Shown in pieces: positions 28,570 through 44,468 of a stretch of DNA of 44,468 nt. Under the pieces are notes generated by a model, which had not been told where the DNA came from, made no database searches, and was given only the letters and a program-made list of their open reading frames with translations. A program made the translations under genes and the position numbers. The number at the start of each line of letters is the position of its first letter. Within the stretch, counting starts at the first letter, position 1. The stretch lies in contig JBAXVH010000001.1 in assembly GCA_037129215.1 (NCBI GenBank), positions 1 through 44,468 on the forward strand, given 5' to 3'. The stretch is from Bacteroidota bacterium (GTDB lineage Bacteria > Bacteroidota > Bacteroidia > Chitinophagales > Chitinophagaceae).

Positions 28570-28595
28570 TAATTACTCCTAAAAGGATTATTTAT

Positions 28596-28624: not shown

Positions 28625-28626
28625 CA

Positions 28627-29919: not shown

Positions 29920-30127
29920 TCATGCAGGCATACATACCCGCTGTAAATATTAAGCCATAGCTTTTAGTGCTGTAGCCTATGTATGCCAAGGATAATTCTG
30001 CTAGAATAAAGATGACAAAGCCCCATTTGTTTTTATTAGCAATACATAGCATGCCTATAAGGGCACTAAAGAACACGGCTATATTTGCTATAAGGAGCAT
30101 TAAAGTCATAGATTTTCCCCGCCCCAT
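29873..30127 (-). CDS. Small 3-TM membrane protein (PnuC-repeat/SemiSWEET-like topology, speculative)
   Basis: 84 aa with three hydrophobic helices. Ends in MNVYSWIKW. Confidence 0.4.
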   Translation of the reverse strand: MGRGKSMTLMLLIANIAVFFSALIGMLCIANKNKWGFVIFILAELSLAYIGYSTKSYGLIFTAGMYACMNVYSWIKWTNEKIKR

Positions 30128-30747
30128 CGACTAAGTCTACTTCTTTCACAGTCTTTTAGATAAACAGCTTTAATAAAGTCTTCATTCCCAATTCTAGATT
30201 CTAGAATTGTAAGGGCATTGTTGTGAATAGTTAGTTTTCGATTATCAATCTGTGAGGTGTCGCCTAGACATACAATTTTAGAGTTTTCACCTATGCGGGT
30301 GATAATAACCTTTAATTGCTGTGGTGTGAGATTCTGCACTTCGTCGATAATTACAAATCTACCGCGTAAACTTCTACCACGAATATGTTGAATAGAGATT
30401 GTTTTTATCTTACTTTCTATAATAGATTGTGTAGTTTTAGAGTCTCCTACTAACATCTCTAAGTTATCCATTAAAGCACCCATCCAAGGCAATAGTTTTT
30501 CCTCTAATTCCCCTGGTAAATGTCCTAAATCCTCACCGACGCCTGTAGGTCCTCGAGTAAATATTATCTCTTTATACATGTGTTGCTCTATAACCAATTC
30601 TAATGCACTTGCAAGCGATAATAAGGTCTTACCACTACCTGCCCCACCATTAAGCACTACGAGCTCCACAGAAGGGTCTGTCAAGTATTTTAAAGCGACT
30701 TTTTGCTCTTCATTTTTTGGGGTAATACCCCACACTTTATAACTCAT
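30106..30747 (-). CDS. phoH: PhoH-family ATPase
   Basis: VVLNGGAGSGKTLLSLA (Walker A), TRGPTGVGEDLGHLPG, IRGRSL, FVIIDEVQN (Walker B), VCLGDTSQID. The ATG at 30747 overlaps the TGA of the upstream pseudogene fragment; the track uses TTG at 30759. Confidence 0.9.
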   Translation of the reverse strand: MSYKVWGITPKNEEQKVALKYLTDPSVELVVLNGGAGSGKTLLSLASALELVIEQHMYKEIIFTRGPTGVGEDLGHLPGELEEKLLPWMGALMDNLEMLVGDSKTTQSIIESKIKTISIQHIRGRSLRGRFVIIDEVQNLTPQQLKVIITRIGENSKIVCLGDTSQIDNRKLTIHNNALTILESRIGNEDFIKAVYLKDCERSRLSRWGGENL

Positions 30748-31199
30748 ACTCTTCTCCAAACTCTGTTAAATTTAATGTTGCTGATTGTTTGCTCACACAC
30801 ACCAAATATTCGAGCGATAGTTCTTTGGTTTAATACAGCTTTTTTTAATAATACTTTTATCTGCACAACATCTTTTTCTGTTAATTTTGCATTACAATGG
30901 GCTTCTCCAATCCCAGTTATCTAATAAATTTTATACTGTTTTTGTGGCAATACCCCACACTCAAACCAGTATAAGGCATTATCAATACTATATATTCCAT
31001 TATTTGCAGCTAGCATGATAGCTAAATAACCGGCATTGTGTAGTGCTGGTTTTAATTTCTTATAAACACCAGCTTTTGTTAAGTATACATTTCCCTTCTT
31101 TGTTACAAAATAATTTGGGTGGTTAGGTAGGGGATAATATTTTAAAGCTTCTTCTTGTTCTGGGTTTTTTAAGCGTATGCCCCAAGTTTTAATGTTCAT
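30744..31199 (-). pseudogene. Decayed HNH-type homing endonuclease (NUMOD4-like N-terminus, in-frame TAG, C-terminal HTH, catalytic core missing) fused to a diverged copy of the phoH 5' end
   Basis: ORF 30921..31199 ends in TAG and the same frame continues ITGIGEAHCNAKLTEKDVVQIKVLLKKAVLNQRTIARIFGVCEQTISNIKFNRVWRRV*. This tail parallels the C-terminus of the intact HNH at 35460..35945 (GESRPNSKLTDIKVREIR...). The first 22 aa, MNIKTWGIRLKNPEQEEALKYY, parallel PhoH MSYKVWGITPKNEEQKVALKYL. Confidence 0.6.
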
Positions 31200-31384
31200 T
31201 ATAAGTCTCCATCATTATTAATTTCGGCAACTATTTTGGCGCTAAATTGACATGCTAAGAGAAAAGATTTAAAATCTTCTAAAATTTCATCTATTGTTTG
31301 ATGTTGTCCAGACACTAAGACTTTTCTATAGCCTTCTACATCTATATCACCTTCCATAATAAAAGTATATTTATCTGAGATCAT
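31199..31384 (-). CDS. Hypothetical acidic protein (61 aa)
   Basis: Small co-oriented ORF overlapping its neighbours. Confidence 0.5.
   Translation of the reverse strand: MISDKYTFIMEGDIDVEGYRKVLVSGQHQTIDEILEDFKSFLLACQFSAKIVAEINNDGDL
31247..31275 (+). promoter_or_regulatory. Promoter-like TTGACA-N17-TAAAAT on the plus strand, antisense to minus-strand genes
   Basis: Exact -35 hexamer and 17-nt spacer. It may be fortuitous in AT-rich DNA. Confidence 0.2.
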
Positions 31385-32240
31385 TTAAATAATCCTCACC
31401 GTTACGTTTCTGATTATCAACAATATATAAGAGATTAGCGATTTCATATAGTTTTTCTTTATATTCATCCTTATAATGATTATAATACATTTCTGTAACA
31501 ATAGCAAGCATTTCTTTCTCTGTTTTAGCCTTGCTTAATAGCTTTGATGACTTGACAGGTCCAATGTTAGGTATTCCTGGTATATTATCGACATTGTCAC
31601 CTGTAAGCATTTGGTGAAAGAAGAAAGCTTTTCCTGTCCCTCTTTGACCATCCATGGGTAAAACACCAATACTATCATTTACTACATATCTTTCTTGTTT
31701 AACCCAGTGATAATGTTTTCCTTCTATCATAGAAATGTCTTTGTCTATGTGGGATGCAATAGTGTTGTCTGTTTGATACATCCCCAAGGCATCGTCAGCC
31801 TCAAATCCATCTATTTCCTGTGCACCCCAATGCTTAATTAAATACTCTCTAATAGAGGCATAATGAAGGGGTCTAGCGGGGCGATTGGCTTTATAACCTA
31901 GCCCTTTAGGACCAGGTGTTTTAGCAAGCTTAAAACGAAAATTAGAGCCATTAGAAGGAGAGAGCCATAAATTAAGGGCTCCAATGTTATTTAATGATTT
32001 TAATTGGGATTTTACAATATAAATCGCATGTTCTAAAGGTTCTGTTATTTTATATCCTTCTAAAGAGAATTCTTTTAGAGCTAACGTCTTGACTTTTTGA
32101 ATAATTTGTGATTTAGTGTGTTTATTACCAAAATCATAGGTTTTCTTAGGGGTTACTAATTTATAAGCCTGTTTTTCGACTGCAAATGCGGAGCGATAGA
32201 GAATTTCATCGGCTTCTATATTTAATAGTAATTTACTCAT
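31371..32240 (-). CDS. 5'-3' exonuclease / flap endonuclease (FEN, PIN + H3TH)
   Basis: GFEADDALG metal-binding block. QMLTGDNVDNIPGIPNIGPVKSSKLL is the H3TH motif. Confidence 0.9.
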   Translation of the reverse strand: MSKLLLNIEADEILYRSAFAVEKQAYKLVTPKKTYDFGNKHTKSQIIQKVKTLALKEFSLEGYKITEPLEHAIYIVKSQLKSLNNIGALNLWLSPSNGSNFRFKLAKTPGPKGLGYKANRPARPLHYASIREYLIKHWGAQEIDGFEADDALGMYQTDNTIASHIDKDISMIEGKHYHWVKQERYVVNDSIGVLPMDGQRGTGKAFFFHQMLTGDNVDNIPGIPNIGPVKSSKLLSKAKTEKEMLAIVTEMYYNHYKDEYKEKLYEIANLLYIVDNQKRNGEDYLNDLR

Positions 32241-32422
32241 AATCCCTCACTCGAATCATGGCCTAATTTATCAAACATATCATCAACATCTTTACATCTT
32301 ACAATTCCTTCACCCTTTCTAGCCTCCTCAATAGCTTTAGCCGTTTCTTTATTAGGATCAAGTTGCTTTCTTGATACCAACTCATTAAATATTGCTTTTA
32401 TATTAAGAATAAGATTGGACAT
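32237..32422 (-). CDS. Hypothetical protein (61 aa)
   Basis: ATGA overlap with the FEN gene. Confidence 0.5.
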   Translation of the reverse strand: MSNLILNIKAIFNELVSRKQLDPNKETAKAIEEARKGEGIVRCKDVDDMFDKLGHDSSEGL

Positions 32423-32433
32423 AATTCACCTTT

Positions 32434-32462
32434 AATATAAAGGGCGCAATTAGAGCGCCCTT
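32434..32462 (-). terminator. Hairpin terminator after the SSB-like gene (AAGGGCGC-N7-GCGCCCTT)
   Basis: 8-bp GC-rich stem at 32440-32447/32455-32462, followed on the minus strand by TATATTAAA. Confidence 0.55.
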
Positions 32463-32474
32463 CCTTAGGTATTA

Positions 32475-33137
32475 TTAAAGTTCAATTTCTAATGATTCAA
32501 AATCATCATCTAAGTCATCTAAAGATGAATCTGCTTTAATTGACTGAGTAATTGTTTTTGTTTGACTGGGTTTTGACTCATTAGGTTTATTATACTCTCC
32601 TGATTTAACCTCCTGCTCTAATGCCATACTAAGTTTTAGAAGTTCTCTAGCTACTTTACCCACTTGTTCTACACTTGTTTTAGTGCCTTGTTGGGCAACA
32701 ACAATAGCTACAGCATCGTGTAATGTAGCGCCTACTTTAACACCGGCTTCATTATATGGTGTTTTAGTTGCAAAAGAATTTCCGCCCCCTCCTCCGTTAA
32801 ATGCGGGTTTGTTAAATGCGGGTTTAGGTTTAGATGTAAAAGTACTGGCCGCCTTAATTTCTTTTAAATTCCAGAAACCTTGAGGAGCCCCTTCTTTTTG
32901 TGCAAAGACTTTAACTAAGACAAGTTCATCTCCATTTTTAGCTGCGGATTTTAGCAGTTCTTTTTCTTCATTAGAGAAATTACTTGTCAACTTGGAGGCT
33001 GTAGATGCTTGGTTACTGTCATTATCTGTACGAATGTAGTTAATAGTAATTTTATCTACTTTAGTACCTTCTCCAGTACGTTCGTAGCCCGTAATTTTAC
33101 CTTTTTGTTGTGATTCCTGTCCATTCGTGAAAACCAT
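32475..33137 (-). CDS. Putative single-stranded DNA-binding protein
   Basis: Strong RBS (aaggagataactatATG), Gly-rich linker (FNGGGGGNSF), acidic C-terminal tail (SSLDDLDDDFESLEIEL), located between the pol and FEN genes. Confidence 0.5.
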   Translation of the reverse strand: MVFTNGQESQQKGKITGYERTGEGTKVDKITINYIRTDNDSNQASTASKLTSNFSNEEKELLKSAAKNGDELVLVKVFAQKEGAPQGFWNLKEIKAASTFTSKPKPAFNKPAFNGGGGGNSFATKTPYNEAGVKVGATLHDAVAIVVAQQGTKTSVEQVGKVARELLKLSMALEQEVKSGEYNKPNESKPSQTKTITQSIKADSSLDDLDDDFESLEIEL

Positions 33138-33149
33138 ATAGTTATCTCC

Positions 33150-33305
33150 TTAGTTCATGTTATCAAACTCTTTTAAAATACCGGTAAGAACGTTGGCTAC
33201 TGTAGCATACAATAAAATTGTATGACTGCCTACAAATAGCCCCGTTATTACACAGCTTAGCGAAACAAAGTATAAGTATCTATGTAATTTTATATTATGC
33301 TTCAT
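33150..33305 (-). CDS. Possible 51-aa single-TM peptide (not in the ORF track)
   Basis: MKHNIKLHRYLYFVSLSCVITGLFVGSHTILLYATVANVLTGILKEFDNMN. Its ATG overlaps the end of the pol gene. Fills the pol-SSB gap. Confidence 0.3.
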   Translation of the reverse strand: MKHNIKLHRYLYFVSLSCVITGLFVGSHTILLYATVANVLTGILKEFDNMN

Positions 33306-35442
33306 AATTTTCCATTAAGTAGAAGTTATTACCTACTTTTACATCTACTTTAAATTTAAAAGGGGCGTCTTTCTTTAAATACTTTTTAAATAAAGTCGGT
33401 ATATCCTCCATTATACCTTTAATTTTAGGGACTGTCAAGCTTAATTTATCTTCTTTTACGTAAAACTCAATACTATCATGCACCTGATTAATCATCTTAA
33501 CATCGTCATTATTCAATGATAGAATGTATTGAAAGATTTCACTAGTTGCAAGAGCTACAACATCTGCTGCACCGCCTTGTACCGCATAGTTCTTCATCTG
33601 TGTAGGTGAGAAACCTGCTCTTACCTTTCCAAATTTATCATATTGTCCCATTTCTTCAAATGCATATCGCTTACCTGTAATAGATTGGTAATAACCAATA
33701 TCTCTAAATCTATCATTTATGTAATCTGCGTTTAATTTATCTTTCATAATCGGAAGCAATTCTATTCCACCAATAAATCTTTTAGAGTACTTATTAAACC
33801 CTTTTCGAAAATTAGGTATGTGTTTAGATAATGAAGGAAATTTATTACTGTTTACAGTACTAACTACTTTATCATTAAATTCTTTAACGCAAGGATAATC
33901 TTCATCTTCTTTGGTAAAGATCTTTTTAATAACATCCTCATCTAATCCTGTAGACAGGGCTAGTTTTTTAGGTGAAGCACCATAGGCTTTTTGATAACTA
34001 ATAGTCTTAGCTTTACTACGCTTTAATTCCCATTCTGGTAATTTATCTATTTTACACAATTTGTATACGTCATTATAGGCCATATCTTCTGCGTAAGAAA
34101 GGCGTAATATATGAAAATCAACTCCGTCTAATAGGTCATTAGTAAGTTTAGGATCTTCACTAATCATTGCTAGAATATAAATTTCTAGCTGACTAAAATC
34201 TATAGACACACATTTGTAACCGACTAGTGCTATGAATTGATTTTTAATATATTTCTCCATGCCTCCTTTACTTGTAATGTTTTGTAAATTAGGTTTAGAT
34301 GAACTTAAACGCCCAGTTGTTGTAGCTGTATTATTGTAGTGTGGGTACAATATCCCGTCAATAGAATAGTTAAGAAATGGCTCAAGATAAGTTGAGCACA
34401 CTTTCTCCACTTTCATAGACAGTTTTTGTAATTTACAATATTGTTTAACTAATGGATCTTCAATTGTATTAGAAATTTTTTCAATAATTTCAGCACCAGT
34501 TCTATACCTGCCGTTTACTTCACTAGGTGATGTTAGTGTTATGGGCAAGTTAAATCCGTGAATTTCTATATTAGTTTCAATAATTTTAGTCTTGGGTTTA
34601 CCATTTTTATAAAATCCAGCGTCTTCTCGTTTCTTACATTTAATACTTCCACCAAACAACAGGGCACTCTTATGTGTAGGAGACTGTATATTAAATGGTG
34701 GTAAGTCTGGATCAGACCAGAATTGGCTAACAATCTCTTCGGACTTTTGTAAAAACTCTATAGATTTAAGTTTCAAAGCTTTTAATGTTTTTTCTGTATT
34801 TATTAGGTCAACTTTAATCCCTGTAGTCATTGTAGATACTAAGGCCAACATATACATGTTATATGTTTTAATAACATCTACCATACCGAGTCTTTTAGCT
34901 CTTTCTATTTGTTTAACAGCTATTTCAAATGTAGAACTGCCGTCTCCATAACAGTATTTATTAAATAATTCAAATATTCTTTTATGACTGTTTTTATGTG
35001 TTATGATTACATCAGCACCAATCCCTTTTTTAAATAGTTTAGAAATTCTATCTTCTTTTACTTTTTTATCTAAATAGATTAATTGCAGTTCTGCAAGGGA
35101 AGCAAATGCATGTCGTTGTCCAGACATAAGATATTCAGCAATTTGAGTATCCCAAGTAAAGCCCCCTCTTTTAATAAAGGCTTGAAAAGACTTGTCATGC
35201 CATATGTAAGCTAAATCGAATGGTGCATTATGTGCGATAATACAATCGGATTGTTCTAAAGCTTTGACGCAACCTTCAGACAAGGTTCTTTTGAATCCTT
35301 GTAGATTATGCTCTACATTAATAGCTTTAGGATGTGTCCCATAAATTAATGTGTATATATCATTTTTAGGATCACGAAATGTGCCTGAATGGATAGTTTT
35401 TCCAATGCTGGTTTCTGTATCTAGAACACAAAATTTAGTCAT
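33295..35442 (-). CDS. Family A DNA polymerase with a 3'-5' exonuclease domain
   Basis: Exo motifs FCVLDTETS and IIAHNAPFDL. Pol motifs RLSSSKPNLQNI, KTISYQKAYGAS and INQVHDSIEF. The ATG at 35442 has a GGAGAG RBS; the track start 35484 overlaps the HNH gene. Confidence 0.95.
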   Translation of the reverse strand: MTKFCVLDTETSIGKTIHSGTFRDPKNDIYTLIYGTHPKAINVEHNLQGFKRTLSEGCVKALEQSDCIIAHNAPFDLAYIWHDKSFQAFIKRGGFTWDTQIAEYLMSGQRHAFASLAELQLIYLDKKVKEDRISKLFKKGIGADVIITHKNSHKRIFELFNKYCYGDGSSTFEIAVKQIERAKRLGMVDVIKTYNMYMLALVSTMTTGIKVDLINTEKTLKALKLKSIEFLQKSEEIVSQFWSDPDLPPFNIQSPTHKSALLFGGSIKCKKREDAGFYKNGKPKTKIIETNIEIHGFNLPITLTSPSEVNGRYRTGAEIIEKISNTIEDPLVKQYCKLQKLSMKVEKVCSTYLEPFLNYSIDGILYPHYNNTATTTGRLSSSKPNLQNITSKGGMEKYIKNQFIALVGYKCVSIDFSQLEIYILAMISEDPKLTNDLLDGVDFHILRLSYAEDMAYNDVYKLCKIDKLPEWELKRSKAKTISYQKAYGASPKKLALSTGLDEDVIKKIFTKEDEDYPCVKEFNDKVVSTVNSNKFPSLSKHIPNFRKGFNKYSKRFIGGIELLPIMKDKLNADYINDRFRDIGYYQSITGKRYAFEEMGQYDKFGKVRAGFSPTQMKNYAVQGGAADVVALATSEIFQYILSLNNDDVKMINQVHDSIEFYVKEDKLSLTVPKIKGIMEDIPTLFKKYLKKDAPFKFKVDVKVGNNFYLMENYEA
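33410..33438 (-). promoter_or_regulatory. Sigma70-type promoter TTGACA-N17-TATAAT inside the 3' end of the pol gene
   Basis: The reverse complement reads TTGACAgtccctaaaattaaaggTATAAT. It would drive the SSB-like gene. Confidence 0.5.
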
Positions 35443-35459
35443 TTGTCTCTCCATTACCA

Positions 35460-35945
35460 TCAATTTTGTTTTACATGACTCCAAATTTCACCTGTCCAAA
35501 TACGATAAATTAAAGAAGAATGAACCTTATATAAAGCTGCAATTTTAGGGCCTGACAACTTTCCTTGATAGTTTCTTATTTCTCTAACTTTAATATCTGT
35601 TAATTTAGAATTAGGCCGAGATTCACCCTTCACTCTTGAACATCTCCCTTTAAGCATCTTATCTCTATTATTATCTGCAACAGTTCCTAAAAATAAATGT
35701 TGCAAATTTAAACATTTAGGATTATCACATTTATGACATACAAGTAATTTTTCTGGTATAGGACCATTGTGTCTAATCCAAACAGCTCGATGTAATAATC
35801 GTGCATAATTATTTCCTACGTATGTTTTACCTACTCTAGCATATCCCCATTCATTAACAACTTTAGTAAATTCTACACAATTATTTTCATTATTTAATAA
35901 AGTATTAGTTTTAATATAATGATCAAATCTACTATGATCTACCAT
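35460..35945 (-). mobile_element. Free-standing HNH homing endonuclease gene between the helicase and polymerase genes
   Basis: 161-aa ORF. GYARVG...HRAVWIRHNGPIPEKLLVCHKCDNPKCLNLQHLFLGTVADNNRD (HNH core) plus a C-terminal HTH (SKLTDIKVREIRNYQGKLSGPKIAALYKVHSSLIYRIWTGEIW). Confidence 0.85.
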
Positions 35946-37216
35946 GCAAGTTCCTCGTAACTACTATATTTAGGATTAATCTGACATGTAAATTTAATAG
36001 GTTCCCCACGTTTTACTTTAGGGGTACTAATAAATCTCAAATGTGGATTACTAGGTTCTCTACCAATACCAATAAAAGTTTCGGCTGAAGCCACTTTAGC
36101 TTTACAACCTAATACATCTTGTTCACTTAAGAAGCGTTTAGTCTTTTCTTCGCCAGTTTCTTTATCAAAGTATCCTGTATTACCTGATTGTGTAGTTCCT
36201 ATAATTGGGCAGGAACTAAGTGAAATTCTTCTAACACTATCGTACAATTTCTTCAACGATATAGCATCCTCTTCATTAGCTAATGAATCTAACATATCGA
36301 TAATAACTAATGATGGATTATATTTTCTAATCTTTTGTTCTACGAAATCCAATTGTTGTATTCCTAATTGAAATACAACAAATTTATCAATATCATATTC
36401 TTCTATGAATTTAGCACGAATTTCAGTACGTTTTTCAACAATTTCTTCCATACCTTCTTTATATACATCTCTATATAAATTAGACCAAAATCTACCATAA
36501 ATATCTGCGGGCGTTCCTTCGCTATTAAAATAAAGAATAGGGCCTGAGTCTTTTACATTAGATAAATGTTTAAAAGCATGTACTGCCTCAGATATAGTAA
36601 ATGCTGATTTACCAGTATTTTTATCGGCAGCTATAACAACAAACTGCCCTTGAATTAATCCTCCTAAACTATTTTGTAATTCAGGAAGAAAGTAAGGAAT
36701 ACCCTTAGATTTATCTAGTATTTCTAAATCAACAGTAGTGGCTGTAATAGCATCAGGGTCAACAGCATTGTGTGTTAATGTGAAAGTTGTTGATTCAAAT
36801 TTATCTAAAATATTTCGTAATTCTGTAATATTTAAATTATTAATATTTTTATTTAAATCCTCAATAGCAATTTGTTTTATAAAGTTAACTAGGCAAGACT
36901 CTCTTGATTCAGGAGCCGCATTCTTAATTGCGGGAAATACATAATCTTTATAGTAATCTAATTCTTCATTTGATAAATCTTTATAATGCCAGTTTTGAGA
37001 AAATTCTGTGTAGAATAAACCAAAATCTATGTGTTCGTGGTTCGCGAACTGAGAATAATATTTCTTATAATCTTGTAAGATTAGTTTAGTGTCAGGAAGG
37101 AGTCTTTTAATATCTAAGAGATAAATATAACTGTCATAATCAGCTTTAAACGACAGTATGTTTAACAAAGCTGCTTCTAAAGCTACATCTGGACTAACTA
37201 TATTTATGTTGTTCAT
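35939..37216 (-). CDS. DnaB/T7 gp4-type replicative helicase
   Basis: Walker A AADKNTGKSAF, Walker B LVIIDMLDSL, RecA-like C-terminal domain. 425 aa. Confidence 0.85.
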   Translation of the reverse strand: MNNINIVSPDVALEAALLNILSFKADYDSYIYLLDIKRLLPDTKLILQDYKKYYSQFANHEHIDFGLFYTEFSQNWHYKDLSNEELDYYKDYVFPAIKNAAPESRESCLVNFIKQIAIEDLNKNINNLNITELRNILDKFESTTFTLTHNAVDPDAITATTVDLEILDKSKGIPYFLPELQNSLGGLIQGQFVVIAADKNTGKSAFTISEAVHAFKHLSNVKDSGPILYFNSEGTPADIYGRFWSNLYRDVYKEGMEEIVEKRTEIRAKFIEEYDIDKFVVFQLGIQQLDFVEQKIRKYNPSLVIIDMLDSLANEEDAISLKKLYDSVRRISLSSCPIIGTTQSGNTGYFDKETGEEKTKRFLSEQDVLGCKAKVASAETFIGIGREPSNPHLRFISTPKVKRGEPIKFTCQINPKYSSYEELAW

Positions 37217-37247
37217 TATAACCTTATAGTGTGATGTCTATAGGGTT

Positions 37248-37276
37248 ATAATAACATTTATCTACATTTGTGTCAA
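37248..37276 (-). promoter_or_regulatory. Sigma70-type promoter TTGACA-N17-TATTAT upstream of the helicase gene
   Basis: The reverse complement reads TTGACAcaaatgtagataaatgtTATTAT, in the 146-bp intergenic gap. Confidence 0.6.
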
Positions 37277-37362
37277 GGTTTATTAGATATAATAGCATAT
37301 AAATAAACTAAAGTTTAATTTAAAATAAAATATTCGAGGAATGCTAGAATTTTTAAATAAAA

Positions 37363-37947
37363 TTAAAACTTATATATTAAATGACACATTGGAAAATCCA
37401 TACTAGCTTCTCTAGTATCTAAAGGAGGGTGAATATTGTCAAGACTAATAGTTTCATGACCATATTTATCAATCATTCGTTGCCAAAGGGCCTCACCTGC
37501 ACATGGGTCATAACCAGCACGCAAAGCTAAATAAACACCATATCGATCAGCGTTTGATTCATTAATAGTAGGAGATATAACGGGAATATCCCAATTTAAT
37601 AAATGTCCTAGCATAACATGACCAATTTCATGGCCTAAAATAATAGCCATTTCATCGTCTGTTTGTAGAAATTCTAGCATCGCTGTCGTGATTGTAACTG
37701 TTTTGCCGTCTGTGTATGCATTGATTTCGTCACTTTCATCCACAACTAGCGCAGGAAATTTAACACCACTATCTGTATACGCTTGAAGGGTCATAAAAAC
37801 AGCGTTAGCATGTTGTAGTTTTGTTTTTATATCCATTTTGGCTGATTTAAATGCGAAAACACTAGCAAGACTTAGTGTAACTAGAGATATTATAAGGATT
37901 CTGATATATTTATATTGAAATAGTTTTTTCATTGGCTCCATCATCAT
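37363..37947 (-). CDS. Secreted M48-family Zn metallopeptidase (paralog of 716..1150)
   Basis: Signal/TM segment ILIISLVTLSLASVFA. INAYTDG...DDEMAIILGHEIGHVMLGH (HExxH), SNADRYGVYLALRAGYDPC...HPPLDTRE. Confidence 0.7.
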   Translation of the reverse strand: MMMEPMKKLFQYKYIRILIISLVTLSLASVFAFKSAKMDIKTKLQHANAVFMTLQAYTDSGVKFPALVVDESDEINAYTDGKTVTITTAMLEFLQTDDEMAIILGHEIGHVMLGHLLNWDIPVISPTINESNADRYGVYLALRAGYDPCAGEALWQRMIDKYGHETISLDNIHPPLDTREASMDFPMCHLIYKF

Positions 37948-38731
37948 TTATATAATGTTTTAATTCTGTACTTACATATTCTTTTGGGTCTTTTTCTGTA
38001 GTGATAATTTTTAAATTATAAGATTTAGAATTATATGCATTTAATTTACATCTATGTTTAATTATATCATATAACTTCTGAAAAATTTTTGCTGCAGATT
38101 CTTGTCCTGGTTTATCGCCGTCTAACCATATAATTATATTTTCATAACGTAAGATAGAATCAATATATTCTTGTTTTAATTTAGTTCCAAACAAACACAG
38201 ACAATCTTCAATGTCACCAACACGAATACATGAAATAAAATCCTCTACTAATATAATTGTAGTATTATTTGGTTGATTGTTGTTTGATGCAACAAAAGCT
38301 ACATTAATGTTACCAACAGATAAATAGCTCTTATTAGGAAAAAATCTTCTTTGATAACCGTGAATATTACCATTCTCTATTACAGGGAAAATTAAACTTT
38401 CGCCTTTGAACTCAATACCTGAATTAGTAACAAATTCATCATACGGACAGTACATTATTTTGTATTTCTTAATTAAATTAGAGTAAATACCGTATTTAGT
38501 AAGCCATTTATTAGTTTCTAAAGAGAATTCTTTTTGATTTGTTACCAAATTAGAGGGGATATATAAAGAATTAAATTGTTCTATTTTTTCTCTAAAACTA
38601 TAAGAAACTTTAGAGTTAAATGTTGAATAACCACAAGAAAAACAATATGCACCATTCGTATACACACAAAAACACTGGTTTAAATGATCGTCTCCACATT
38701 GAACACATGAAGTACTCTTAGATATTAACAT
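37910..38731 (-). CDS. DNA primase (zinc finger + TOPRIM)
   Basis: CVQCGDDH...CFSCGY zinc finger. TOPRIM blocks ILVEDFISCIRV and IIWLDGDKPG. Confidence 0.85.
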   Translation of the reverse strand: MLISKSTSCVQCGDDHLNQCFCVYTNGAYCFSCGYSTFNSKVSYSFREKIEQFNSLYIPSNLVTNQKEFSLETNKWLTKYGIYSNLIKKYKIMYCPYDEFVTNSGIEFKGESLIFPVIENGNIHGYQRRFFPNKSYLSVGNINVAFVASNNNQPNNTTIILVEDFISCIRVGDIEDCLCLFGTKLKQEYIDSILRYENIIIWLDGDKPGQESAAKIFQKLYDIIKHRCKLNAYNSKSYNLKIITTEKDPKEYVSTELKHYINDDGANEKTISI

Positions 38732-39012
38732 GCGTCCTCAATCTGCCATATTCTATTAAAAGCTTCTCTAACAGAAATAGAATTTAATTTAGCTACTTTA
38801 CATATACGATTACAGAACGTATGTAGAAATACAGTATCTCTGTATTTAGCTGCGTCAATTAATACAGCAATCCATAAATGAACTTCTGGATTATATTTAC
38901 CTATTCGGTATTCGCTAATGTCGTGTAAACCACCTAAATAGCTTTTATCAGTAGATAAAGACTCATTATTGGGAACACCATATTCTAGGTTTTTCCATAA
39001 TCCAAATTTCAT
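38725..39012 (-). CDS. Hypothetical protein (95 aa)
   Basis: Co-oriented ORF overlapping both neighbours. Confidence 0.55.
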   Translation of the reverse strand: MKFGLWKNLEYGVPNNESLSTDKSYLGGLHDISEYRIGKYNPEVHLWIAVLIDAAKYRDTVFLHTFCNRICKVAKLNSISVREAFNRIWQIEDAC

Positions 39013-39554
39013 AATGAGGCCTCTTTATTATAATAAGTATTAATTTGGTATCTAATAATTATAACATTTGCTAACATGTGTGATAAATGAAGACATTCAG
39101 ATTCATCATCAAAGTTATCCCCAAATGAATATTTAATATAATGTCTCGCTAAAGCATCTAATAATAATATTATACTTATTTGTTGTTTATAACTGTTTTC
39201 TCTGTATTTACCACTTTGTAATGCTAATGAACGTAATTTTATAAAATCATTAATAATATCTTTTGTTTCTGTAACATTATCATGTAATATTGTATCTTGA
39301 AGCGCTTGTAAAGTAGCTTGTATAACTTTTATATCTTTATTATTTTCTATATTTTTATTTAGTTCCTCAATTAATTCTCCTAGGCCATTAGCCCAGTCAT
39401 TACCGTTTAAAGTAGGTAAAAAACAATATCTAGCTCCTTCAGGCTTCCCTTCTTTTTGTTTCAATACTAGTTCTTCATTAGATAATTCATTTAATTGTCT
39501 ATTATCTTCAATGTCTTCATAATTAGACATAGTATAGTTGTCTGGTGTTAACAT
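39009..39554 (-). CDS. Hypothetical protein, possibly dATP/dGTP diphosphohydrolase-domain-like
   Basis: SGKYRENSYKQ...ALARHYIKY...DDESECLHLSHMLANVIII resembles the KY..NW / RH / D.ESG..HL.H...N pattern of that phage domain family, as remembered. The ATG at 39554 (TAATG overlap, GGAGG RBS) is preferred over 39572. Confidence 0.35.
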   Translation of the reverse strand: MLTPDNYTMSNYEDIEDNRQLNELSNEELVLKQKEGKPEGARYCFLPTLNGNDWANGLGELIEELNKNIENNKDIKVIQATLQALQDTILHDNVTETKDIINDFIKLRSLALQSGKYRENSYKQQISIILLLDALARHYIKYSFGDNFDDESECLHLSHMLANVIIIRYQINTYYNKEASL

Positions 39555-39781
39555 TATGCATCCTCCAAACAATCTTCGTCATAAGGATATTGATGATAAT
39601 TTAAATAATTATCCCAAGCCTTTCTAGCAAAATAATCTTCACTAAAAATAGTAGTTTCGATAGGTGAATTAGTACAATCTTTCACATCAAGTAATGTTAA
39701 TTCTGTATCTTCATCTATAGAATAAAATATTGTTACAGTTTCATTTTCTATATCCATATCAAAATGATATTTATATGACAT
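39554..39781 (-). CDS. Hypothetical acidic protein (75 aa)
   Basis: GGAGAA RBS and a consensus promoter directly upstream. Confidence 0.55.
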   Translation of the reverse strand: MSYKYHFDMDIENETVTIFYSIDEDTELTLLDVKDCTNSPIETTIFSEDYFARKAWDNYLNYHQYPYDEDCLEDA

Positions 39782-39802
39782 AATGTTCTCCTATATAATT
39801 CT

Positions 39803-39831
39803 ATTATACTAGAGATTAATTACCGTGTCAA
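39803..39831 (-). promoter_or_regulatory. Sigma70-type promoter TTGACA-N17-TATAAT
   Basis: The reverse complement reads TTGACAcggtaattaatctctagTATAAT. Its -35 overlaps the last codons of the endolysin gene. Confidence 0.65.
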
Positions 39832-40376
39832 CATAATTTATAGAGTTTTAATACATCAAATACATTAATTAATTTACCTTTTGAATAAATAGGTTTATGA
39901 CCAGCACCAACAGGAAATAATAGTGCGTTTCCATCCTCACTATATACGCCAGTGGCGTACAATTTAGCTTCTTTAGTACGTCTACCGATAATTTCTTTAG
40001 GTTTGTTCCATTTCATAAAATCATTGCATATAGTTTTATAATCTGCTTTCAAATTTATATCTCTAATAAGAGAAGATTTTTTCATACCACCAACACCCAC
40101 GTTATAACACCAACTAGTTAATGCGTCAAATTGATATTGCGTAATCTGCACTTTTAATGCATCATTAATAGGGTCAGTATATTTTGTAATTGATTTTTTA
40201 AGGAAGAATATCGCATCATCCATAGTTATATCTGGATGAGAAAGACTTAGATCGGGGATTTCTGTTTTTGTAGTGCCAATGCCTATAGTTACAACACCAA
40301 CACTGTCTAAATAAGGACTTAAAGAAATTCCTTCAAGTCCTATTATATTAACTAAACCTGCTAATGATATATTCAT
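39828..40376 (-). CDS. Endolysin, GH24 (T4 lysozyme-like) muramidase
   Basis: GLEGISLSPYLDSVGVVTIGIGTT carries the Glu-Asp-Thr catalytic pattern of GH24 lysozymes. Confidence 0.88.
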   Translation of the reverse strand: MNISLAGLVNIIGLEGISLSPYLDSVGVVTIGIGTTKTEIPDLSLSHPDITMDDAIFFLKKSITKYTDPINDALKVQITQYQFDALTSWCYNVGVGGMKKSSLIRDINLKADYKTICNDFMKWNKPKEIIGRRTKEAKLYATGVYSEDGNALLFPVGAGHKPIYSKGKLINVFDVLKLYKLC

Positions 40377-40585
40377 CGGTGTAATCCTGATTGTTTCATC
40401 CTCTCAGTATATCCTGGAGTATCGTTTGGGTCATAATGACCAACTTGTATTTGTATATCCCCTGAGTTTACATATGTATTAGTACTTCCATCACTGTTAA
40501 ATACAGTAGTAGTGCTAGAAGCTCTAGAAACACCGGCCATAATAATTAAAGCTAATGCTGTTGTTACCATAATTTTATTTAACAT
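40373..40585 (-). CDS. Small signal-anchored or secreted protein in the lysis cassette (spanin-like role possible)
   Basis: N-terminal hydrophobic segment VTTALALIIMAGVSRA. Overlaps both the holin and endolysin genes. No lipobox Cys. Confidence 0.35.
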   Translation of the reverse strand: MLNKIMVTTALALIIMAGVSRASSTTTVFNSDGSTNTYVNSGDIQIQVGHYDPNDTPGYTERMKQSGLHR

Positions 40586-40883
40586 TATGTTTCTCCTTAT
40601 TATGCGTATTTTTTAATTTATTCAATTTTAATAAAGTTTTCAATAATTCATTTCTATTTTCTTTTAATTGTTGTTTATGGTATTTATGTAAAGCAATTGT
40701 TAAAGTTACTAAAGCTGTAATTAATAGTGTAGAGATTAAAATCATAGCTGGAGTAAATCCATTGACAAAGCTATCTCTTAATACCCAAATTACGTCAGCT
40801 ATAACAGCTATCCAACCAGCGATAGACATAGCCTCAATAAGATTGACAGCAGTTTTTATATGTAATAAAAAAGAAGTTTTCAT
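40575..40883 (-). CDS. Putative holin
   Basis: 102 aa with two or three TM helices, then a highly basic C-terminal tail (KYHKQQLKENRNELLKTLLKLNKLKNTHNKEKHNVK). Heads the lysis cassette. Confidence 0.5.
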   Translation of the reverse strand: MKTSFLLHIKTAVNLIEAMSIAGWIAVIADVIWVLRDSFVNGFTPAMILISTLLITALVTLTIALHKYHKQQLKENRNELLKTLLKLNKLKNTHNKEKHNVK

Positions 40884-41039
40884 ATGTCCTCAAAAAGTTA
40901 GTTAAGAAGTCTTAAATGCACTACTGGATAGTTTTACATTCAAAACTGCTTAAATAACTAAAATGTTTGGCACCCAGTTCTAGACTACTATTACGTCGGT
41001 GTTTACACTCTTGTATGAGTTTTGTACTATATAAGATTA

Positions 41040-41074
41040 GTACATATTACTTCCTAATCTTATAAGTTCTTCAC
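41040..41074 (-). promoter_or_regulatory. Perfect 11-bp inverted repeat (TATAAGATTAG-N13-CTAATCTTATA) in the holin leader
   Basis: Arms at 41040-41050 and 41064-41074, lying between the upstream terminator and the holin start. Confidence 0.4.
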
Positions 41075-41153
41075 TAACCTTTTGCAGTATGCTGATATTA
41101 ATCCATATACATAATGCAAGTAGTTGTTAGTTATCATGGCCTCAAACATTTAG

Positions 41154-41205
41154 TTAAAAAAGTGGTCTGACTAATAAAGACTTTGGAGGTCTATTCAAAC
41201 CACTT
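41154..41205 (-). terminator. Intrinsic terminator-like hairpin (11-bp stem with one G-U) followed by a U-run
   Basis: On the minus strand, AAGUGGUUUGA (41205-41195) pairs with UCAGACCACUU (41170-41160), followed by UUUU. Confidence 0.55.
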
Positions 41206-41383
41206 TAATAAACACACTCCTCAACTGCCTGCTGATTACTCAGTCCCTAGCTACTTTCAAGTCTTTCTAGGTTGCTTATCGATCTTACTAAGTCTTTTTA
41301 AAGTCTCCTGCGGTATGCTTGAGGAGGGTTTTTACTTAGTAATTCCGAGGCTTCGAATGTGTTTATTAAAACTTGTTTCTCTT
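41155..41383 (-). ncRNA. Candidate small RNA or terminated leader transcript of about 230 nt
   Basis: Bounded by the promoter at 41390..41418 and the terminator at 41154..41205. No SD-led ORF on this strand. A 13-bp perfect long-range helix (41358-41370 with 41204-41216) encloses about 140 nt. Further complementary pairs are CCUCCUCAA/UUGAGGAG and AUUACU/AGUAAU. Confidence 0.45.
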
Positions 41384-41389
41384 ATTACT

Positions 41390-41418
41390 ATTATCTCATT
41401 TCTTACTACCTTTGTCAA
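41390..41418 (-). promoter_or_regulatory. Sigma70-type promoter TTGACA-N17-GATAAT
   Basis: The reverse complement reads TTGACAaaggtagtaagaaatgaGATAAT. Confidence 0.55.
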
Positions 41419-41567
41419 CTCTTTTCTTATTCCTTAAAAGTGATTGTTGATCCCCTCGGCTAGTTAGGGAAGACCTTCTAGCTCTGCTGTCATCGACGAG
41501 CATTTTTATCAAGGAGATTAATAATAACTCTTTTTTTTCTTATTTATTCTTTATTCTTTATACTTAT

Positions 41568-41596
41568 AGTATATCAATTTATAGGGTATAAGTCAA
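41568..41596 (-). promoter_or_regulatory. Sigma70-type promoter TTGACT-N17-TATACT
   Basis: The reverse complement reads TTGACTtataccctataaattgaTATACT. Lies in tandem upstream of the 41390..41418 promoter. Confidence 0.45.
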
Positions 41597-41640
41597 GCCT
41601 TTTGTCCGCTAAGTGCATACTCTTTTCGGACAAAAGAGGC
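41597..41640. terminator. Long hairpin (GCCTTTTGTCCG ... CGGACAAAAGAGGC) downstream of 41662..41895
   Basis: About 12 bp with one bulge. TTTATTAGGTGTTTTTT follows on the plus strand. It is the first element after the minus-strand gene stop, so it may act bidirectionally. Confidence 0.5.
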
Positions 41641-41661
41641 TTTATTAGGTGTTTTTTAAGG

Positions 41662-41895
41662 CTATAGTAAGCAATTTATAGATTCTGGATCTAATTCTAA
41701 TCGTTGCATAATTGTATTTACAATAGCATGACAATCAGACATTTCACCAGAATGAAGAATTAGTGCTACACCATCTTTAACAATAGTAGACATCCAGCAA
41801 TCTTCTTCATCACTATAATAAACACTCATAGTAGGATTGTCTTCAATATTAATATATAATACTGCCCTATCTTTCCCTAAAATTTTAACATACAT
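41662..41895 (-). CDS. Hypothetical protein (77 aa)
   Basis: GGAG-type RBS (ataggagattaatATG). Co-oriented with the HAD gene. Confidence 0.55.
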   Translation of the reverse strand: MYVKILGKDRAVLYINIEDNPTMSVYYSDEEDCWMSTIVKDGVALILHSGEMSDCHAIVNTIMQRLELDPESINCLL

Positions 41896-41904
41896 ATTAA
41901 TCTC

Positions 41905-42480
41905 CTATGGAATATAGTAAAATGGATTTGGTAATTTAAATACTTTTTTAGCGTAGCCGCCAAGTAAATCTGATTTTTGATCGCCTATAGAAGCTATTAT
42001 AACATAACCTTGCTGTTCTATTTCCGCTCTTTTTGTTGTTTTAAATGATGACGCTGAAGACAAATCATTTTTATTTCTTAAAATAATTTGCTCATATTGC
42101 TTATATCCTGCAGAATCAAGGGCTTTTACAGTGTTTTTGCGTAATTTCTCTGATCTACCAGAAAGAAAGAATACTTTAATACCTAATTTGATAGCTTTTT
42201 CATATAATTTGAACACAGGTTTAATAGCTGTGCTGTTAATTTTATTTAGTTGCAACTTTACTTGCCAAGGAAGATTAGCAAAGTCATTAGCGTCTATATC
42301 TGCATAATTTGATATAGAAGTTTCGTCAATATCAAGCACAATACATGAATTTTTAATTTTTTTATTATAATTTTGAATAAAAACCATAGCTTTTTTAGCT
42401 ATAACATCAATTTCATCAAAATAAGCACCAGTATTATAATATTCTCTAAGTTTTAACTTAAGTTGTCCAATATTATCCAT
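41905..42480 (-). CDS. HAD-superfamily phosphatase, class B/C acid phosphatase-like, without a signal peptide
   Basis: Motif I VLDIDETSISN (DxDxT), motif II FFLSGRSEK, motif IV IGDQKSDLLGG. Confidence 0.75.
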   Translation of the reverse strand: MDNIGQLKLKLREYYNTGAYFDEIDVIAKKAMVFIQNYNKKIKNSCIVLDIDETSISNYADIDANDFANLPWQVKLQLNKINSTAIKPVFKLYEKAIKLGIKVFFLSGRSEKLRKNTVKALDSAGYKQYEQIILRNKNDLSSASSFKTTKRAEIEQQGYVIIASIGDQKSDLLGGYAKKVFKLPNPFYYIP

Positions 42481-42510
42481 ACTATTCTCTGCCTAATTAG
42501 CTATGTTTAC

Positions 42511-42539
42511 AGTATACAGACTCCATATGTATTTGTCAA
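42511..42539 (-). promoter_or_regulatory. Sigma70-type promoter TTGACA-N17-TATACT (leftward arm of a divergent promoter pair)
   Basis: The reverse complement reads TTGACAaatacatatggagtctgTATACT, upstream of 41905..42480. Confidence 0.55.
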
Positions 42540-42554
42540 CTACCATTAACAGTA

Positions 42555-42582
42555 TTGCAAATTATTTTTATTGTGATATAAT
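42555..42582 (+). promoter_or_regulatory. Sigma70-type promoter TTGCAA-N16-TGaTATAAT (rightward arm of the divergent pair)
   Basis: -35 at 42555-42560, extended -10 at 42574-42582. Confidence 0.6.
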
Positions 42583-42996
42583 TATATATGTACGTGAACA
42601 CATAAGTAGACTCCGCTATTAAGAGACGGCGGAAACATACTCTACGATGTCCGGGGTATGTTAAGAACATAAAAACTCGACTTCAGACTGGTTAGTTGCC
42701 AGCAACAGATAGTTATACAATAACCCCACCAATGTCAATGCGGGGAACTATCGAAGGTAGATTCAAACCTTATTCGCTAGTAGAGAATAGAATTGAACTA
42801 ATGAAAATTGTTCTACTTAAGCTTTATAAGACATCAAGATTCTTCTCCTGCTTTCCTTCAATGTCAAGCAGGCTTATGTTAAAAGATTATTACTTAAGTA
42901 ATCTAAACATAAAGAGATCTTATATATTATACTTATATCTGAAGAGAGTAACGTCTCTTAATTGACAACTATGTCCTAAATAAATAGGTAATAATT

Positions 42997-43197
42997 ATGA
43001 TAAATAATATAAAATTAACTTATAGATATTTTTGTAATGATTGTAATGCACGATATAAATTCAAATTAACTCCATTAGAAGCCCAAAATAAATTTCCATG
43101 TAATTATTGTGACAATGCTTACATTACACATAATTTAAAAACAAATAATAATCTATTACACAGATTAGTTCATTTCATTTGCAAATATACAAGGTAG
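42997..43197 (+). CDS. Small zinc-ribbon protein (CxxC...CxxC)
   Basis: FCNDCNARY...PCNYCDN. 66 aa. Confidence 0.5.
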   Translation: MINNIKLTYRYFCNDCNARYKFKLTPLEAQNKFPCNYCDNAYITHNLKTNNNLLHRLVHFICKYTR

Positions 43198-43208
43198 TAA
43201 GGAGACGT

Positions 43209-43394
43209 ATGTGCCCTATATATGAAAAATATTGTGAAAAATGCGATAAAACAGAGGAATATCTCTTGACACTAAGTAAGAAAGATAATATAATAACATG
43301 TAGAGACTGTAAAAATGATATGACCTCCCTTGTATCCAGCGGTAACTTTAAATTGTATGGCGAAGGGGTATATAAACCAAGTAAAAAGGAGTAA
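43209..43394 (+). CDS. Small zinc-ribbon protein (FmdB-like CxxC...CxxC)
   Basis: MCPIYEKYCEKCDK...TCRDCKND. AAGGAG RBS before the ATG at 43209; the track start is 43179. Confidence 0.55.
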   Translation: MCPIYEKYCEKCDKTEEYLLTLSKKDNIITCRDCKNDMTSLVSSGNFKLYGEGVYKPSKKE

Positions 43395-43397
43395 GTT

Positions 43398-43520
43398 ATG
43401 CAAGTATGTCCAATTTGTAAAAATGAATATATCATTTGTAAATGTAAGTTCTGTGGTCAGTCACCTAACCATAGCGACCCTATTCAGTATCCATTAAGAC
43501 CACCATACAGCAGATTGTAA
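43398..43520 (+). CDS. Small zinc-ribbon protein (40 aa; not in the ORF track)
   Basis: AAGGAG RBS 7 nt upstream. MQVCPICKNEYIICKCKFCGQSPNHSDPIQYPLRPPYSRL. Confidence 0.45.
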   Translation: MQVCPICKNEYIICKCKFCGQSPNHSDPIQYPLRPPYSRL

Positions 43521-43620
43521 AAGAAAACCCGCTCGTACATTTTTCAATGCAGAGGAGCGGGCCATGTTATTTATAGTATAACATTATTCATGGTAACAAT
43601 TGACAGTTGGAGATTTAATC

Positions 43621-43815
43621 ATGCCGAATAAAATTAAAAGAGGGCCTAGTAATGTAGCTTACTTTAAGAATTACTCAGCCCAAGATAAACGTGAAAAGAA
43701 TAAGACTAAGAAAATAGAGAAACATTCAGCTAAGCACCCAGATGATAAACAATCTATTGAACGGAAAGTACCTGATTATGGCGTAGGATGGGAAGGTAGA
43801 AAGAAAAGAGAGTAA
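43621..43815 (+). CDS. Small highly basic protein (64 aa)
   Basis: GGAG RBS before the ATG at 43621; the track start is 43600. Lys/Arg-rich. Confidence 0.5.
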   Translation: MPNKIKRGPSNVAYFKNYSAQDKREKNKTKKIEKHSAKHPDDKQSIERKVPDYGVGWEGRKKRE

Positions 43816-43829
43816 ATATTTAAAAATTA

Positions 43830-43838
43830 TGCTATAAT
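43830..43838 (+). promoter_or_regulatory. Possible extended -10 element (TGcTATAAT) upstream of the tRNA and clpP
   Basis: Intergenic. No convincing -35. Confidence 0.3.
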
Positions 43839-43924
43839 TATATTATGTAGACATACAGAATGAATAATCGTTACGCTTTCGACAGGTCTATAGAAGAGCT
43901 AAGCACCTCTAAAAAATGCTATTT

Positions 43925-44000
43925 GCGCCCGTAGCTCAGTTGGGTAGAGCATTAGCATTGTAGCTGATGGAGGCAGGTTCGAATCCTGCCGGACGCACCA
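43925..44000 (+). tRNA. tRNA-like gene with a non-canonical anticodon arm (closest to tRNA-Thr UGU lacking one loop nucleotide), encoded CCA
   Basis: Acceptor GCGCCCG/CGGACGC (one C:A mismatch), D arm GCTC-AGTTGGGTA-GAGC, T arm GCAGG-TTCGAAT-CCTGC, discriminator A plus CCA. The anticodon stem TTAGC/GCTGA leaves only a 6-nt loop (ATTGTA), or 8 nt if the closing C-G pair opens. Confidence 0.7.
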
Positions 44001-44010
44001 TTTGTATTGT

Positions 44011-44032
44011 ACTAGGAACGAACTAGGAACGC
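44011..44032 (+). repeat. Tandem 11-bp direct repeat ACTAGGAACG(A/C)
   Basis: actaggaacga actaggaacgc lies just 3' of the tRNA. A related cctagaaca follows at about 44056. The AGGAAC core also recurs in the 1.8-2.0 kb region. Confidence 0.6.
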
Positions 44033-44196
44033 TAATCACTTAGAATGGCGCACCAGTCCTAGAACAGACGGGGCGAATCGTCTATAAATAGCGCCCATGG
44101 ATTTTGCAAAATATTATTTTGCATCCACCCTTCAAATTGTCTTGATCATATCAAAATCCGAAAACAAATGCTAAGAATAGTCAAGGAGAATAAAGA

Positions 44197-44468
44197 ATGG
44201 TAGAGACTGCAGCTAGTCATTTAGTTCCAATGGTCGTTGAACAAACCTCTCGCGGGGAGCGGTCTTACGATATATATTCTCGCTTACTAAAAGAACGTAT
44301 TATCTTCTTATTAGGTCAAGTTGAAGATAATATGGCCAATCTAGTCGTTGCCCAATTGTTATTTCTTGAGTCAGAAAACCCAGAAAAAGATATTTTTCTC
44401 TATATCAATTCACCGGGCGGTGTCGTAACGTCAGGTATGGCTATTTATGATACGATGCAATTTATCAA
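44197..44468 (+). CDS. clpP: ClpP, N-terminal part (3'-partial in window; continues at 1..392)
   Basis: [89 protein letters not shown] matches the conserved cellular ClpP N-terminus. Confidence 0.92.
44414..44468. repeat. Terminal exact repeat, copy 2 (identical to 1..55)
   Basis: See the feature at 1..55. Confidence 0.95.

Follow-up and report, generated by a model that had tools for sequence, protein, structure and literature searches.

A clpP gene probably copied from a Legionellaceae host into a 44-kb phage, and a minimal ClpX-like ATPase as its candidate partner

Why would a small phage carry a gene for the cellular peptidase ClpP, and whom would this peptidase serve? The question is raised by contig JBAXVH010000001.1, described as a lytic, short-tailed (podovirus-like) phage with a genome of roughly 44 kb and an uncultured Legionella-like bacterium as host. 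We refer to the whole stretch of 44,468 nucleotides that was analysed as the window; its guanine plus cytosine (GC) content is 33.4%. Bases 1..55 are identical to 44414..44468, and this 55-bp terminal overlap makes it a circularly closed contig with a unit of 44,413 bp. A megablast of window positions 1-25000 against GenBank phages gave no match. An earlier note on this DNA had proposed that 44197..44413 joined to 1..392 encode a 202-residue ClpP with its axial region and an intact catalytic triad. This was borne out: the joined open reading frame (ORF) spans 609 nt, that is 202 codons and a stop, and is preceded by the ribosome binding site (RBS) AAGGAG, 8 nt upstream of the ATG. We consider it probable that the gene encodes a functional ClpP that was recently copied from a Legionellaceae host and secures the ClpP supply, with a ClpX-like ATPase of the phage as the putative beneficiary. 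The clpP locus comprises the following parts.

44132..44196, plus strand: relic of the tig 3' end, with the tig stop codon and the native clpP RBS AAGGAG; contiguous host homology from 44156, and a 14-nt exact match at 44132..44145
44197..44468, plus strand: 5' part of clpP, with the ATG at 44197, a 7-residue propeptide and the axial LVPMVVEQ segment; 44414..44468 are the assembler's overlap copy of 1..55
1..392, plus strand: 3' part of clpP, with Ser104, His129 and Asp178; stop codon at 390..392

Identity and host origin of the phage clpP gene

The joined protein scored 292 bits against the Pfam family CLP_protease (PF00574, cut-off 20.2) and passed both the clpP equivalog model TIGR00493 (327.6 bits, cut-off 308.6) and NF001368 (350 bits, cut-off 249). 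Against the model for ClpP-related head maturation proteases (NF045542) it reached 89.6 bits, under the cut-off of 120, and against the protease-capsid fusion model (NF045540) 91.4 bits, under the cut-off of 475. The top match among solved structures was E. coli ClpP (330 bits). The motifs GQAAS, MIHQP and TERD start at residues 100, 127 and 175, which leaves the triad S104/H129/D178 intact and aligned to S97/H122/D171 of E. coli ClpP; the N-terminal axial segment [17 protein letters not shown] is present as well. The Ala-Ala that follows the catalytic Ser had been singled out by the earlier note as a departure from the usual residues. It is there, but it is not unusual for the donor group, as all Legionellales ClpPs that we retrieved, including that of L. 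pneumophila, have it. We therefore rejected Ser-Ala-Ala as a phage-specific change of the active site; it was inherited from the Legionellales donor and is no innovation of the phage.

A protein search that covered 5.8 billion proteins revealed a graded series of ClpP relatives. Copies with 96-100% identity were found on about 30 contigs of up to 44 kb. They were followed by a protein with 94% identity (P0023), found on 76 contigs; its gene lies in the chromosomal context tig-clpP-clpX-lon-hupB-ppiD, on contigs with a GC content of 42.6%. ClpPs of named Legionella species were 86-88% identical, and the best of the matches listed for GTDB representative genomes came from a Legionellaceae metagenome-assembled genome (83%). 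In a neighbour-joining tree the phage ClpPs formed a tight cluster nested among chromosomal ClpPs of uncultured Legionellaceae, beside host allele L177. The gammaproteobacterial flavour attributed to the protein by eye can thus be narrowed to Legionellaceae, and by profile scores and tree it is a bona fide cellular-type ClpP and not a diverged prohead protease.

At the nucleotide level, window 44156..385 (read through the closure) is 92% identical to positions 7960..8620 of L001, a contig with a presumed host allele. Over the coding sequence alone, identity is 94.7% to L001 and 96.0% to L177, both of which lie in the context tig-clpP-clpX-lon. The homology starts about 41 nt before the start codon of host clpP, within the 3' end of tig, and takes in the tig stop codon and the clpP RBS. 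With 42.4%, the GC content of clpP is that of the host locus (42.6%) and not that of its phage flanks (35-36%). Like the Legionellaceae chromosomal ClpPs (MEROPS S14, TIGR00493), the phage protein has the triad, Ser-Ala-Ala, the axial LVPMV[IV]EQ loop, a propeptide and the native RBS in front of its gene; unlike them it is followed by neither clpX nor lon, and only 40-65 nt of tig remain upstream. The phage ClpP is 94-95% identical to the presumed host protein, from which it differs by 10-12 conservative substitutions, and the propeptide encoded in the window is five residues shorter owing to a 15-nt in-frame deletion. These features identify the gene as a recent capture, at the DNA level, of the host's own housekeeping gene, with an uncultured Legionellaceae bacterium as the presumed donor and host.

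Host chromosomal clpP contains the circle-closing 55-mer in identical form, so the circular join of this contig passes through a k-mer shared with the host. The join was validated instead by independent contigs that span the whole gene. The context was checked for five loci only (L005 and L166-L169) of the about 30 contigs with 96-100% identical ClpP. In L005 (Logan, SRR12487001) clpP occupies the same slot with 10 kb of phage DNA on each side, and L166-L168, from three other sequencing runs, and L169, from an ENA assembly, carry complete clpP between phage ORFs. The phage copies share the tig truncation and a phage-type 5' block, both absent from the host alleles examined.

Only some of the related phages have clpP. 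By identity, TerL homologues were closely grouped at 99%, and the next ones came at 76%. The nearest outgroups are L171 and L176, which together represent a whole 34.4-kb contig (TerL 74%), and L173 (TerL 75%). They keep the M48 peptidase and the order terS-terL-portal-GroES-like-scaffold-capsid, and clpP is absent from the whole L171/L176 contig and from L173. Within the clade, clpP is intact in every member examined, across several samples and data sets. The same variable region carries other small genes in relatives, for example those for an RNA ligase and an HNH endonuclease. Thus clpP is a clade-specific addition in a variable region.

The ClpX-like ATPase and its family

A ClpX-like gene with an IGF loop, about 19 kb from clpP, had led to the suggestion that the phage may encode its own ClpXP pair. 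Such a gene exists at a distance of 18.4 kb from clpP.

24731..25783, minus strand: minimal ClpX-like AAA+ ATPase; translation probably begins at the internal Met at 25744 (337 residues), as in relatives

Its product shares with ClpX (TIGR00382/NF003745) the large and small AAA+ domains, Walker A and B, the arginine finger, sensor-2 and the IGF tripeptide, here 'SIGF'. It is no ordinary ClpX, however: with 106.1 bits against NF003745 (cut-off 359) and 81.6 bits against TIGR00382 (cut-off 370.75) it failed both ClpX models, and the zinc-finger N-domain, the pore-2 and RKH loops and the pore-1 tyrosine are missing. No match to PF06689 (zf-C4), a domain that host ClpX has, was found in the ATPase, which starts about 50 residues into the ClpX alignment; its pore-1 reads S-x-G-[FILV] where ClpX has GYVG. 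An AlphaFold2 model (predicted local distance difference test 83.3, predicted template modelling score 0.79) was compared with the PDB using Foldseek, and all top 50 hits were ClpX chains, with E-values of 3e-16 to 1e-13 and template modelling scores of about 0.65-0.70.

About 95 sequence clusters make up the family of this ATPase. They are 38-96% identical, with a length of 300-360 residues, and many of their longest contigs measure 35-49 kb. Beyond this family the next-best matches were true ClpX proteins, with only about 29% identity. The family was not found in deposited phage genomes, where only jumbo-phage ClpX proteins matched (26-28%). We aligned 33 family members (35-96% identity) together with host ClpX. 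Walker A (G77-T84), Walker B (D154/E155), the arginine finger R243 and the sensor-2 residue R304 were invariant. In the 'SIGF' motif (residues 211-214), which aligns to 'GIGF' of host ClpX, G213 and F214 were invariant and preceded by I, L, V, M or F. This Gly-Phe is among only about 23 invariant columns of the family, and the motif lies in a low-confidence loop of the AlphaFold2 model.

In the L171/L176 relative the ATPase is present and clpP absent; the ATPase would thus be ancestral to the family and clpP a later arrival. Read in this way, the ClpXP-like 'pair' appears to have been assembled in two steps, first an old, family-wide ATPase and then clpP in one clade. Directly upstream of the ATPase gene, 25800..26615 (minus strand) encodes an SbmA/BacA-like membrane protein of 271 residues (PF05992, 72 bits), which is not beside the ATPase in L176.

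The possible role of the captured gene

In the course of events that we favour, clpP would have been copied from the host chromosome by DNA-level recombination in one phage lineage. Given the 94-95% identity to host ClpP, the unchanged triad and axial loop and a pocket as in host alleles, the phage protein is expected to assemble into normal ClpP barrels, by itself or together with host subunits; the same identity suggests a tetradecameric barrel with a peptidase activity stimulated by Clp ATPases. The hydrophobic docking pocket comprises what we take to be positions 23, 48, 49, 60, 62, 82, 90, 92, 112, 114 and 189 (E. coli numbering). Each of these is identical to some host allele; V90 and M92 occur also in host allele P0020. 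The phage ClpP would raise or secure the ClpP supply in the infected cell, for the phage ATPase, for host Clp ATPases, or for both. As putative beneficiary we regard the minimal ClpX-like ATPase of the family, which keeps the ClpP-docking IGF loop. If this ATPase docks on ClpP, then in most of the family it would have to use the ClpP of the host, as in the relatives that have no clpP. The combination of ClpP and ATPase would be a ClpXP-like protease, encoded in part by the virus, with selected proteins of host or phage as targets for degradation or remodelling. A self-encoded pair, as proposed by the earlier note, is plausible on these grounds.

Several points weigh against this reading. The pore-1 loop of the ATPase reads S-D-G-F-S (S-G-G-[VI] in most relatives) instead of GYVG and is without an aromatic residue, and about 19 residues that match the ClpX pore-2 and RKH loops ([21 protein letters not shown]) are absent. 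The ATPase may not unfold substrates at all and could cap, open or block ClpP instead; because the pore loops are non-canonical, unfolding, gate opening and blocking are all possible. Furthermore, relatives live without a clpP of their own, so that the gene is not essential to the lifestyle of the family. It is part of a variable 'moron' region and has not drifted towards the GC content of the phage; it is therefore young, and long-term retention is not implied. The dN/dS ratios given below are based on only 15-32 substitutions per pair, and part of the conservation of clpP could stem from repeated re-copying from the host and not from selection in the phage.

Could the phage ClpP serve host ClpX and ClpA only, as a dosage booster or as a replacement after shut-off, while the ATPase is unrelated to it or acts as a ClpP cap or inhibitor? 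The near identity of phage and host ClpP, including a docking pocket as in known host alleles, fits such a role, as does the loss from the ATPase of the pore-1 tyrosine and of the pore-2/RKH loops with which ClpX grips and translocates substrates; moreover, clpP and the ATPase gene lie 18 kb apart on opposite strands. The invariant Gly-Phe of the IGF motif, however, is hard to explain without docking on ClpP, and the conserved Walker A and B motifs, arginine finger and sensor-2 make ATP-driven work likely. We consider service to host unfoldases alone rather unlikely.

Alternatively, clpP might be a passenger, host DNA picked up accidentally by illegitimate or homologous recombination, not yet purged and of no benefit. 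Its very recent arrival (95-96% nucleotide identity, host-like GC content, tig relic), its position in a variable region where relatives carry other small genes, and the sister phages without clpP agree with this. Yet the gene is intact in all clade members examined, from several samples, and tig and other captured DNA were trimmed while clpP and its RBS were kept precisely. Using the Nei-Gojobori method, we obtained a ratio of non-synonymous to synonymous substitution rates (dN/dS) of 0.07 for the window versus L005 (12 synonymous and 3 non-synonymous substitutions), 0.10-0.15 for other phage pairs and 0.13-0.23 for phage versus host, which places the phage clpP, on small counts, under purifying selection. 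A mere passenger is thus improbable.

The variable sites of clpP fall into three blocks that are shuffled among alleles. In phage L166 the 3' block is of the host type, and the host alleles L177 (1558..2181) and L178 (1587..2210), both in full tig-clpP-clpX-lon context, have a phage-type middle block that includes V90 and M92, two positions which presumably line the ATPase-docking pocket of E. coli ClpP. Such mosaic alleles indicate that phage and host clpP pools exchange sequence. A wider proposal, which we hold only tentatively and regard as possible rather than likely, is that the ATPase of this widespread family of 35-50 kb podophages hijacks host ClpP, by re-targeting or by a deregulation like that caused by acyldepsipeptides (ADEP-like), and that the Legionellaceae lineage completed a self-sufficient viral ClpXP by capturing clpP, its alleles (including pocket positions 90 and 92) being pooled with those of the host. 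Phage clpP might even provide the homology for an insertion at the clpP locus of the host that needs no integrase, as a junction of the type seen in contig L170 (see below) would suggest.

A chimera of phage and host reads, or a phage integrated at the host clpP locus, is highly improbable as the source of the clpP segment. Besides the circle-closing 55-mer, a 226-nt exact stretch, longer than common assembly k-mers, is shared by host allele L177 and the window clpP, and in L170 (1..1365, matching L001 7263..8627) host tig and the 5' part of clpP run on into phage DNA with the 86-residue ORF, the M48 gene and the terminase, the crossover lying inside clpP; two such contigs were read. Against this, independent assemblies, from other samples and made with other assemblers, cover clpP from end to end and continue into phage sequence at either side (up to 10 kb in L005, phage ORFs in L166-L169), the derived features of the phage copies (tig truncation, 5' block and, in the window, the 15-nt propeptide deletion) are absent from the host alleles examined, and a screen of ORFs against Pfam or PHROGs revealed no integrase (several small ORFs lay outside this screen). 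As independent assemblies place clpP between the same phage neighbours, an assembly chimera was rejected for clpP as such, and the earlier note's own caveat of a chimeric join did not materialise. L170 itself may be an assembler artefact, because L177 and the phage allele share the 226-nt stretch; a real phage-host recombinant or an integrated form is the alternative.

Equally remote is the idea that clpP is the prohead (capsid maturation) protease, of the ClpP-fold S14 type, encoded outside the head module. None of the six ORFs that separate the portal gene from the capsid gene matched a protease family, a match of the capsid protein was to the capsid portion of families in which protease and capsid are fused, and phage head maturation proteases (NF045542, NF045540) share the ClpP/crotonase-like fold with our protein and match it weakly. 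Both scores are below the cut-offs, though, and the protein is 94-95% identical to a chromosomal housekeeping ClpP. As the earlier note had stated, clpP lies away from the head genes and outside the portal-capsid interval; about 5 kb of DNA, which include the terminase genes, separate it from the start of the portal gene downstream. The clpP-less relatives share the head gene order; since these sister phages with the same head genes do without clpP, it cannot be the prohead protease. The head module also contains a scaffold-like protein of 269 residues, a feature reminiscent of protease-independent podoviruses. The prohead protease was therefore rejected as a candidate.

Genomic surroundings and known systems

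Upstream and downstream of clpP we annotated three further features.

43266..43294, plus strand: sigma-70 consensus match, a perfect TTGACA-17-TATAAT upstream of the tRNA gene and clpP; a consensus match only
43925..44000, plus strand: tRNA gene, Tyr-GTA according to ARAGORN; derived from host tRNA-Arg(TCT), with a remodelled anticodon arm; 196 nt upstream of clpP
401..661, plus strand: ORF of 86 residues, starting 9 nt after the clpP stop; no family match

An early-type operon beside a tRNA had been suggested for clpP. The tRNA gene is indeed its neighbour, but 'early' rests only on the sigma-70 consensus match, and clpP shares its strand with the terminase and structural genes, which follow about 3.4 kb downstream. 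No terminator-like sites were found between the promoter match and clpP or around clpP; terminator-like matches at 86-106 were discounted, as they lie inside the clpP coding sequence. Transcription of clpP by host RNA polymerase would probably start at the 43266..43294 consensus, which heads the rightward transcription unit.

On L001, host tig is directly preceded by four tRNA genes (Pro, Arg-TCT, His, Leu). The tRNA-Arg(TCT) gene (L001 6284..6360) is about 1.55 kb upstream of host clpP, and their order and orientation agree with those in the phage. The tRNA of L005 (9608..9685) is 95-96% identical to it, with an anticodon that is now TTT (Lys), and the window tRNA is more diverged (82%). RNAfold predicted a 7-bp anticodon stem and a 6-nt loop for the latter, with a mismatch C4:A69 in the acceptor, so that it may be identity-switched or decaying. 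Judging from the shared order and orientation, tRNA and clpP may have been taken in one host segment (tRNA cluster-tig-clpP), from which tRNA-His, tRNA-Leu and most of tig were deleted later; in the stretch between the tRNA and the tig relic, a sensitive blastn detected no residual host homology besides one 14-mer. The 86-residue ORF was seen only in the clpP-bearing clade (92-95% identical in L005, L166 and L170; absent from L171, L173, L175 and L176) and may be functionally linked to clpP.

Other genes of the window are worth recording. A GroES/Cpn10-like protein of 113 residues (8019..8360, plus strand) is encoded within the head module, between portal and scaffold, and conserved across the family (L005, L166, L171 and L173). 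Two small M48-type (HExxH) metallopeptidase-like proteins with hydrophobic N-termini are encoded at 716..1150 (plus strand) and 37363..37947 (minus strand), the former also upstream of the terminase in relatives (35-46% identity). Taken together, ClpP, the ClpX-like ATPase, the GroES-like protein and the two M48-type proteins make a proteostasis gene set that is unusually rich for a 44-kb phage. A class B acid phosphatase of the HAD IIIB type (PF03767, 141 bits; 41905..42480, minus strand) was, among the loci compared, shared only with L005, which belongs to the clpP-bearing clade. An HNH endonuclease ORF (35460..35945, minus strand) separates the DNA polymerase gene from the helicase gene, overlapping the end of each. 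Among the TerL proteins of relatives (P0254, P0298, P0355 and P0358) some have 820-840 residues; P0298, P0355 and P0358 contain intein/LAGLIDADG domains, and P0254 (831 residues) has only two terminase domains on record despite its extra length.

That a phage should carry a cellular ClpP had been presented as a surprise, which it is not: such genes are not rare on phage genomes, and taken alone the clpP gene is ordinary. Genes for cellular-type ClpP and ClpX have been reported for the Agrobacterium jumbo phage Atu_ph07 (PMC6102473) and, as gp257/gp258, for Bacillus phage G (PMC12484599), and Lak phages carry them likewise. Cellular-type ClpP is also common on the viral contigs of IMG/VR, where a pattern scan matched at least 600 stretches, of which the best 80 loci were kept. 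Only four of these 80 showed the host arrangement tig-clpP-clpX-lon, and in 28 a ClpX homologue was encoded no more than 10 kb away; the closest ClpP to that of our phage was, among the matches listed, only 71% identical. The window resembles these jumbo and mega phages and IMG/VR contigs in having a cellular-type ClpP, often accompanied by a ClpX-type ATPase in the same genome. It differs from them in three respects. Their ClpPs are 47-72% identical to the one studied here and of older, unclear origin, whereas this one is an almost unmodified host copy; their ClpX proteins are near-full homologues (40-53% identical to host ClpX in IMG/VR), whereas the ATPase of the window is a minimal 337-residue protein with 25-29% identity to ClpX; and jumbo and mega-phage genomes measure 200-600 kb, compared with 44 kb here. 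The literature on phage-encoded ClpP, on IGF-loop phage ClpX-like proteins and on Legionella phages with ClpP yielded, in our searches, no account of the system. Stable isolation of a Legionella phage was first reported only in 2025 (PMC12407071).

What makes the locus of interest is the combination of a recent, traceable capture, a small genome, a Legionellaceae host and the pairing with an undescribed minimal ClpX-like family. It represents an unusually clean and datable acquisition of a host gene, in which the donor locus, the junction inside tig, the RBS and possibly a co-captured tRNA are still visible, and it ties a phage family to an uncultured Legionellaceae host. The order of events that it suggests is an old ATPase depending on host ClpP first, with clpP acquired later. 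If the partnership is true, the minimal ATPase would show the least that a ClpX needs to work, or to interfere, with ClpP.

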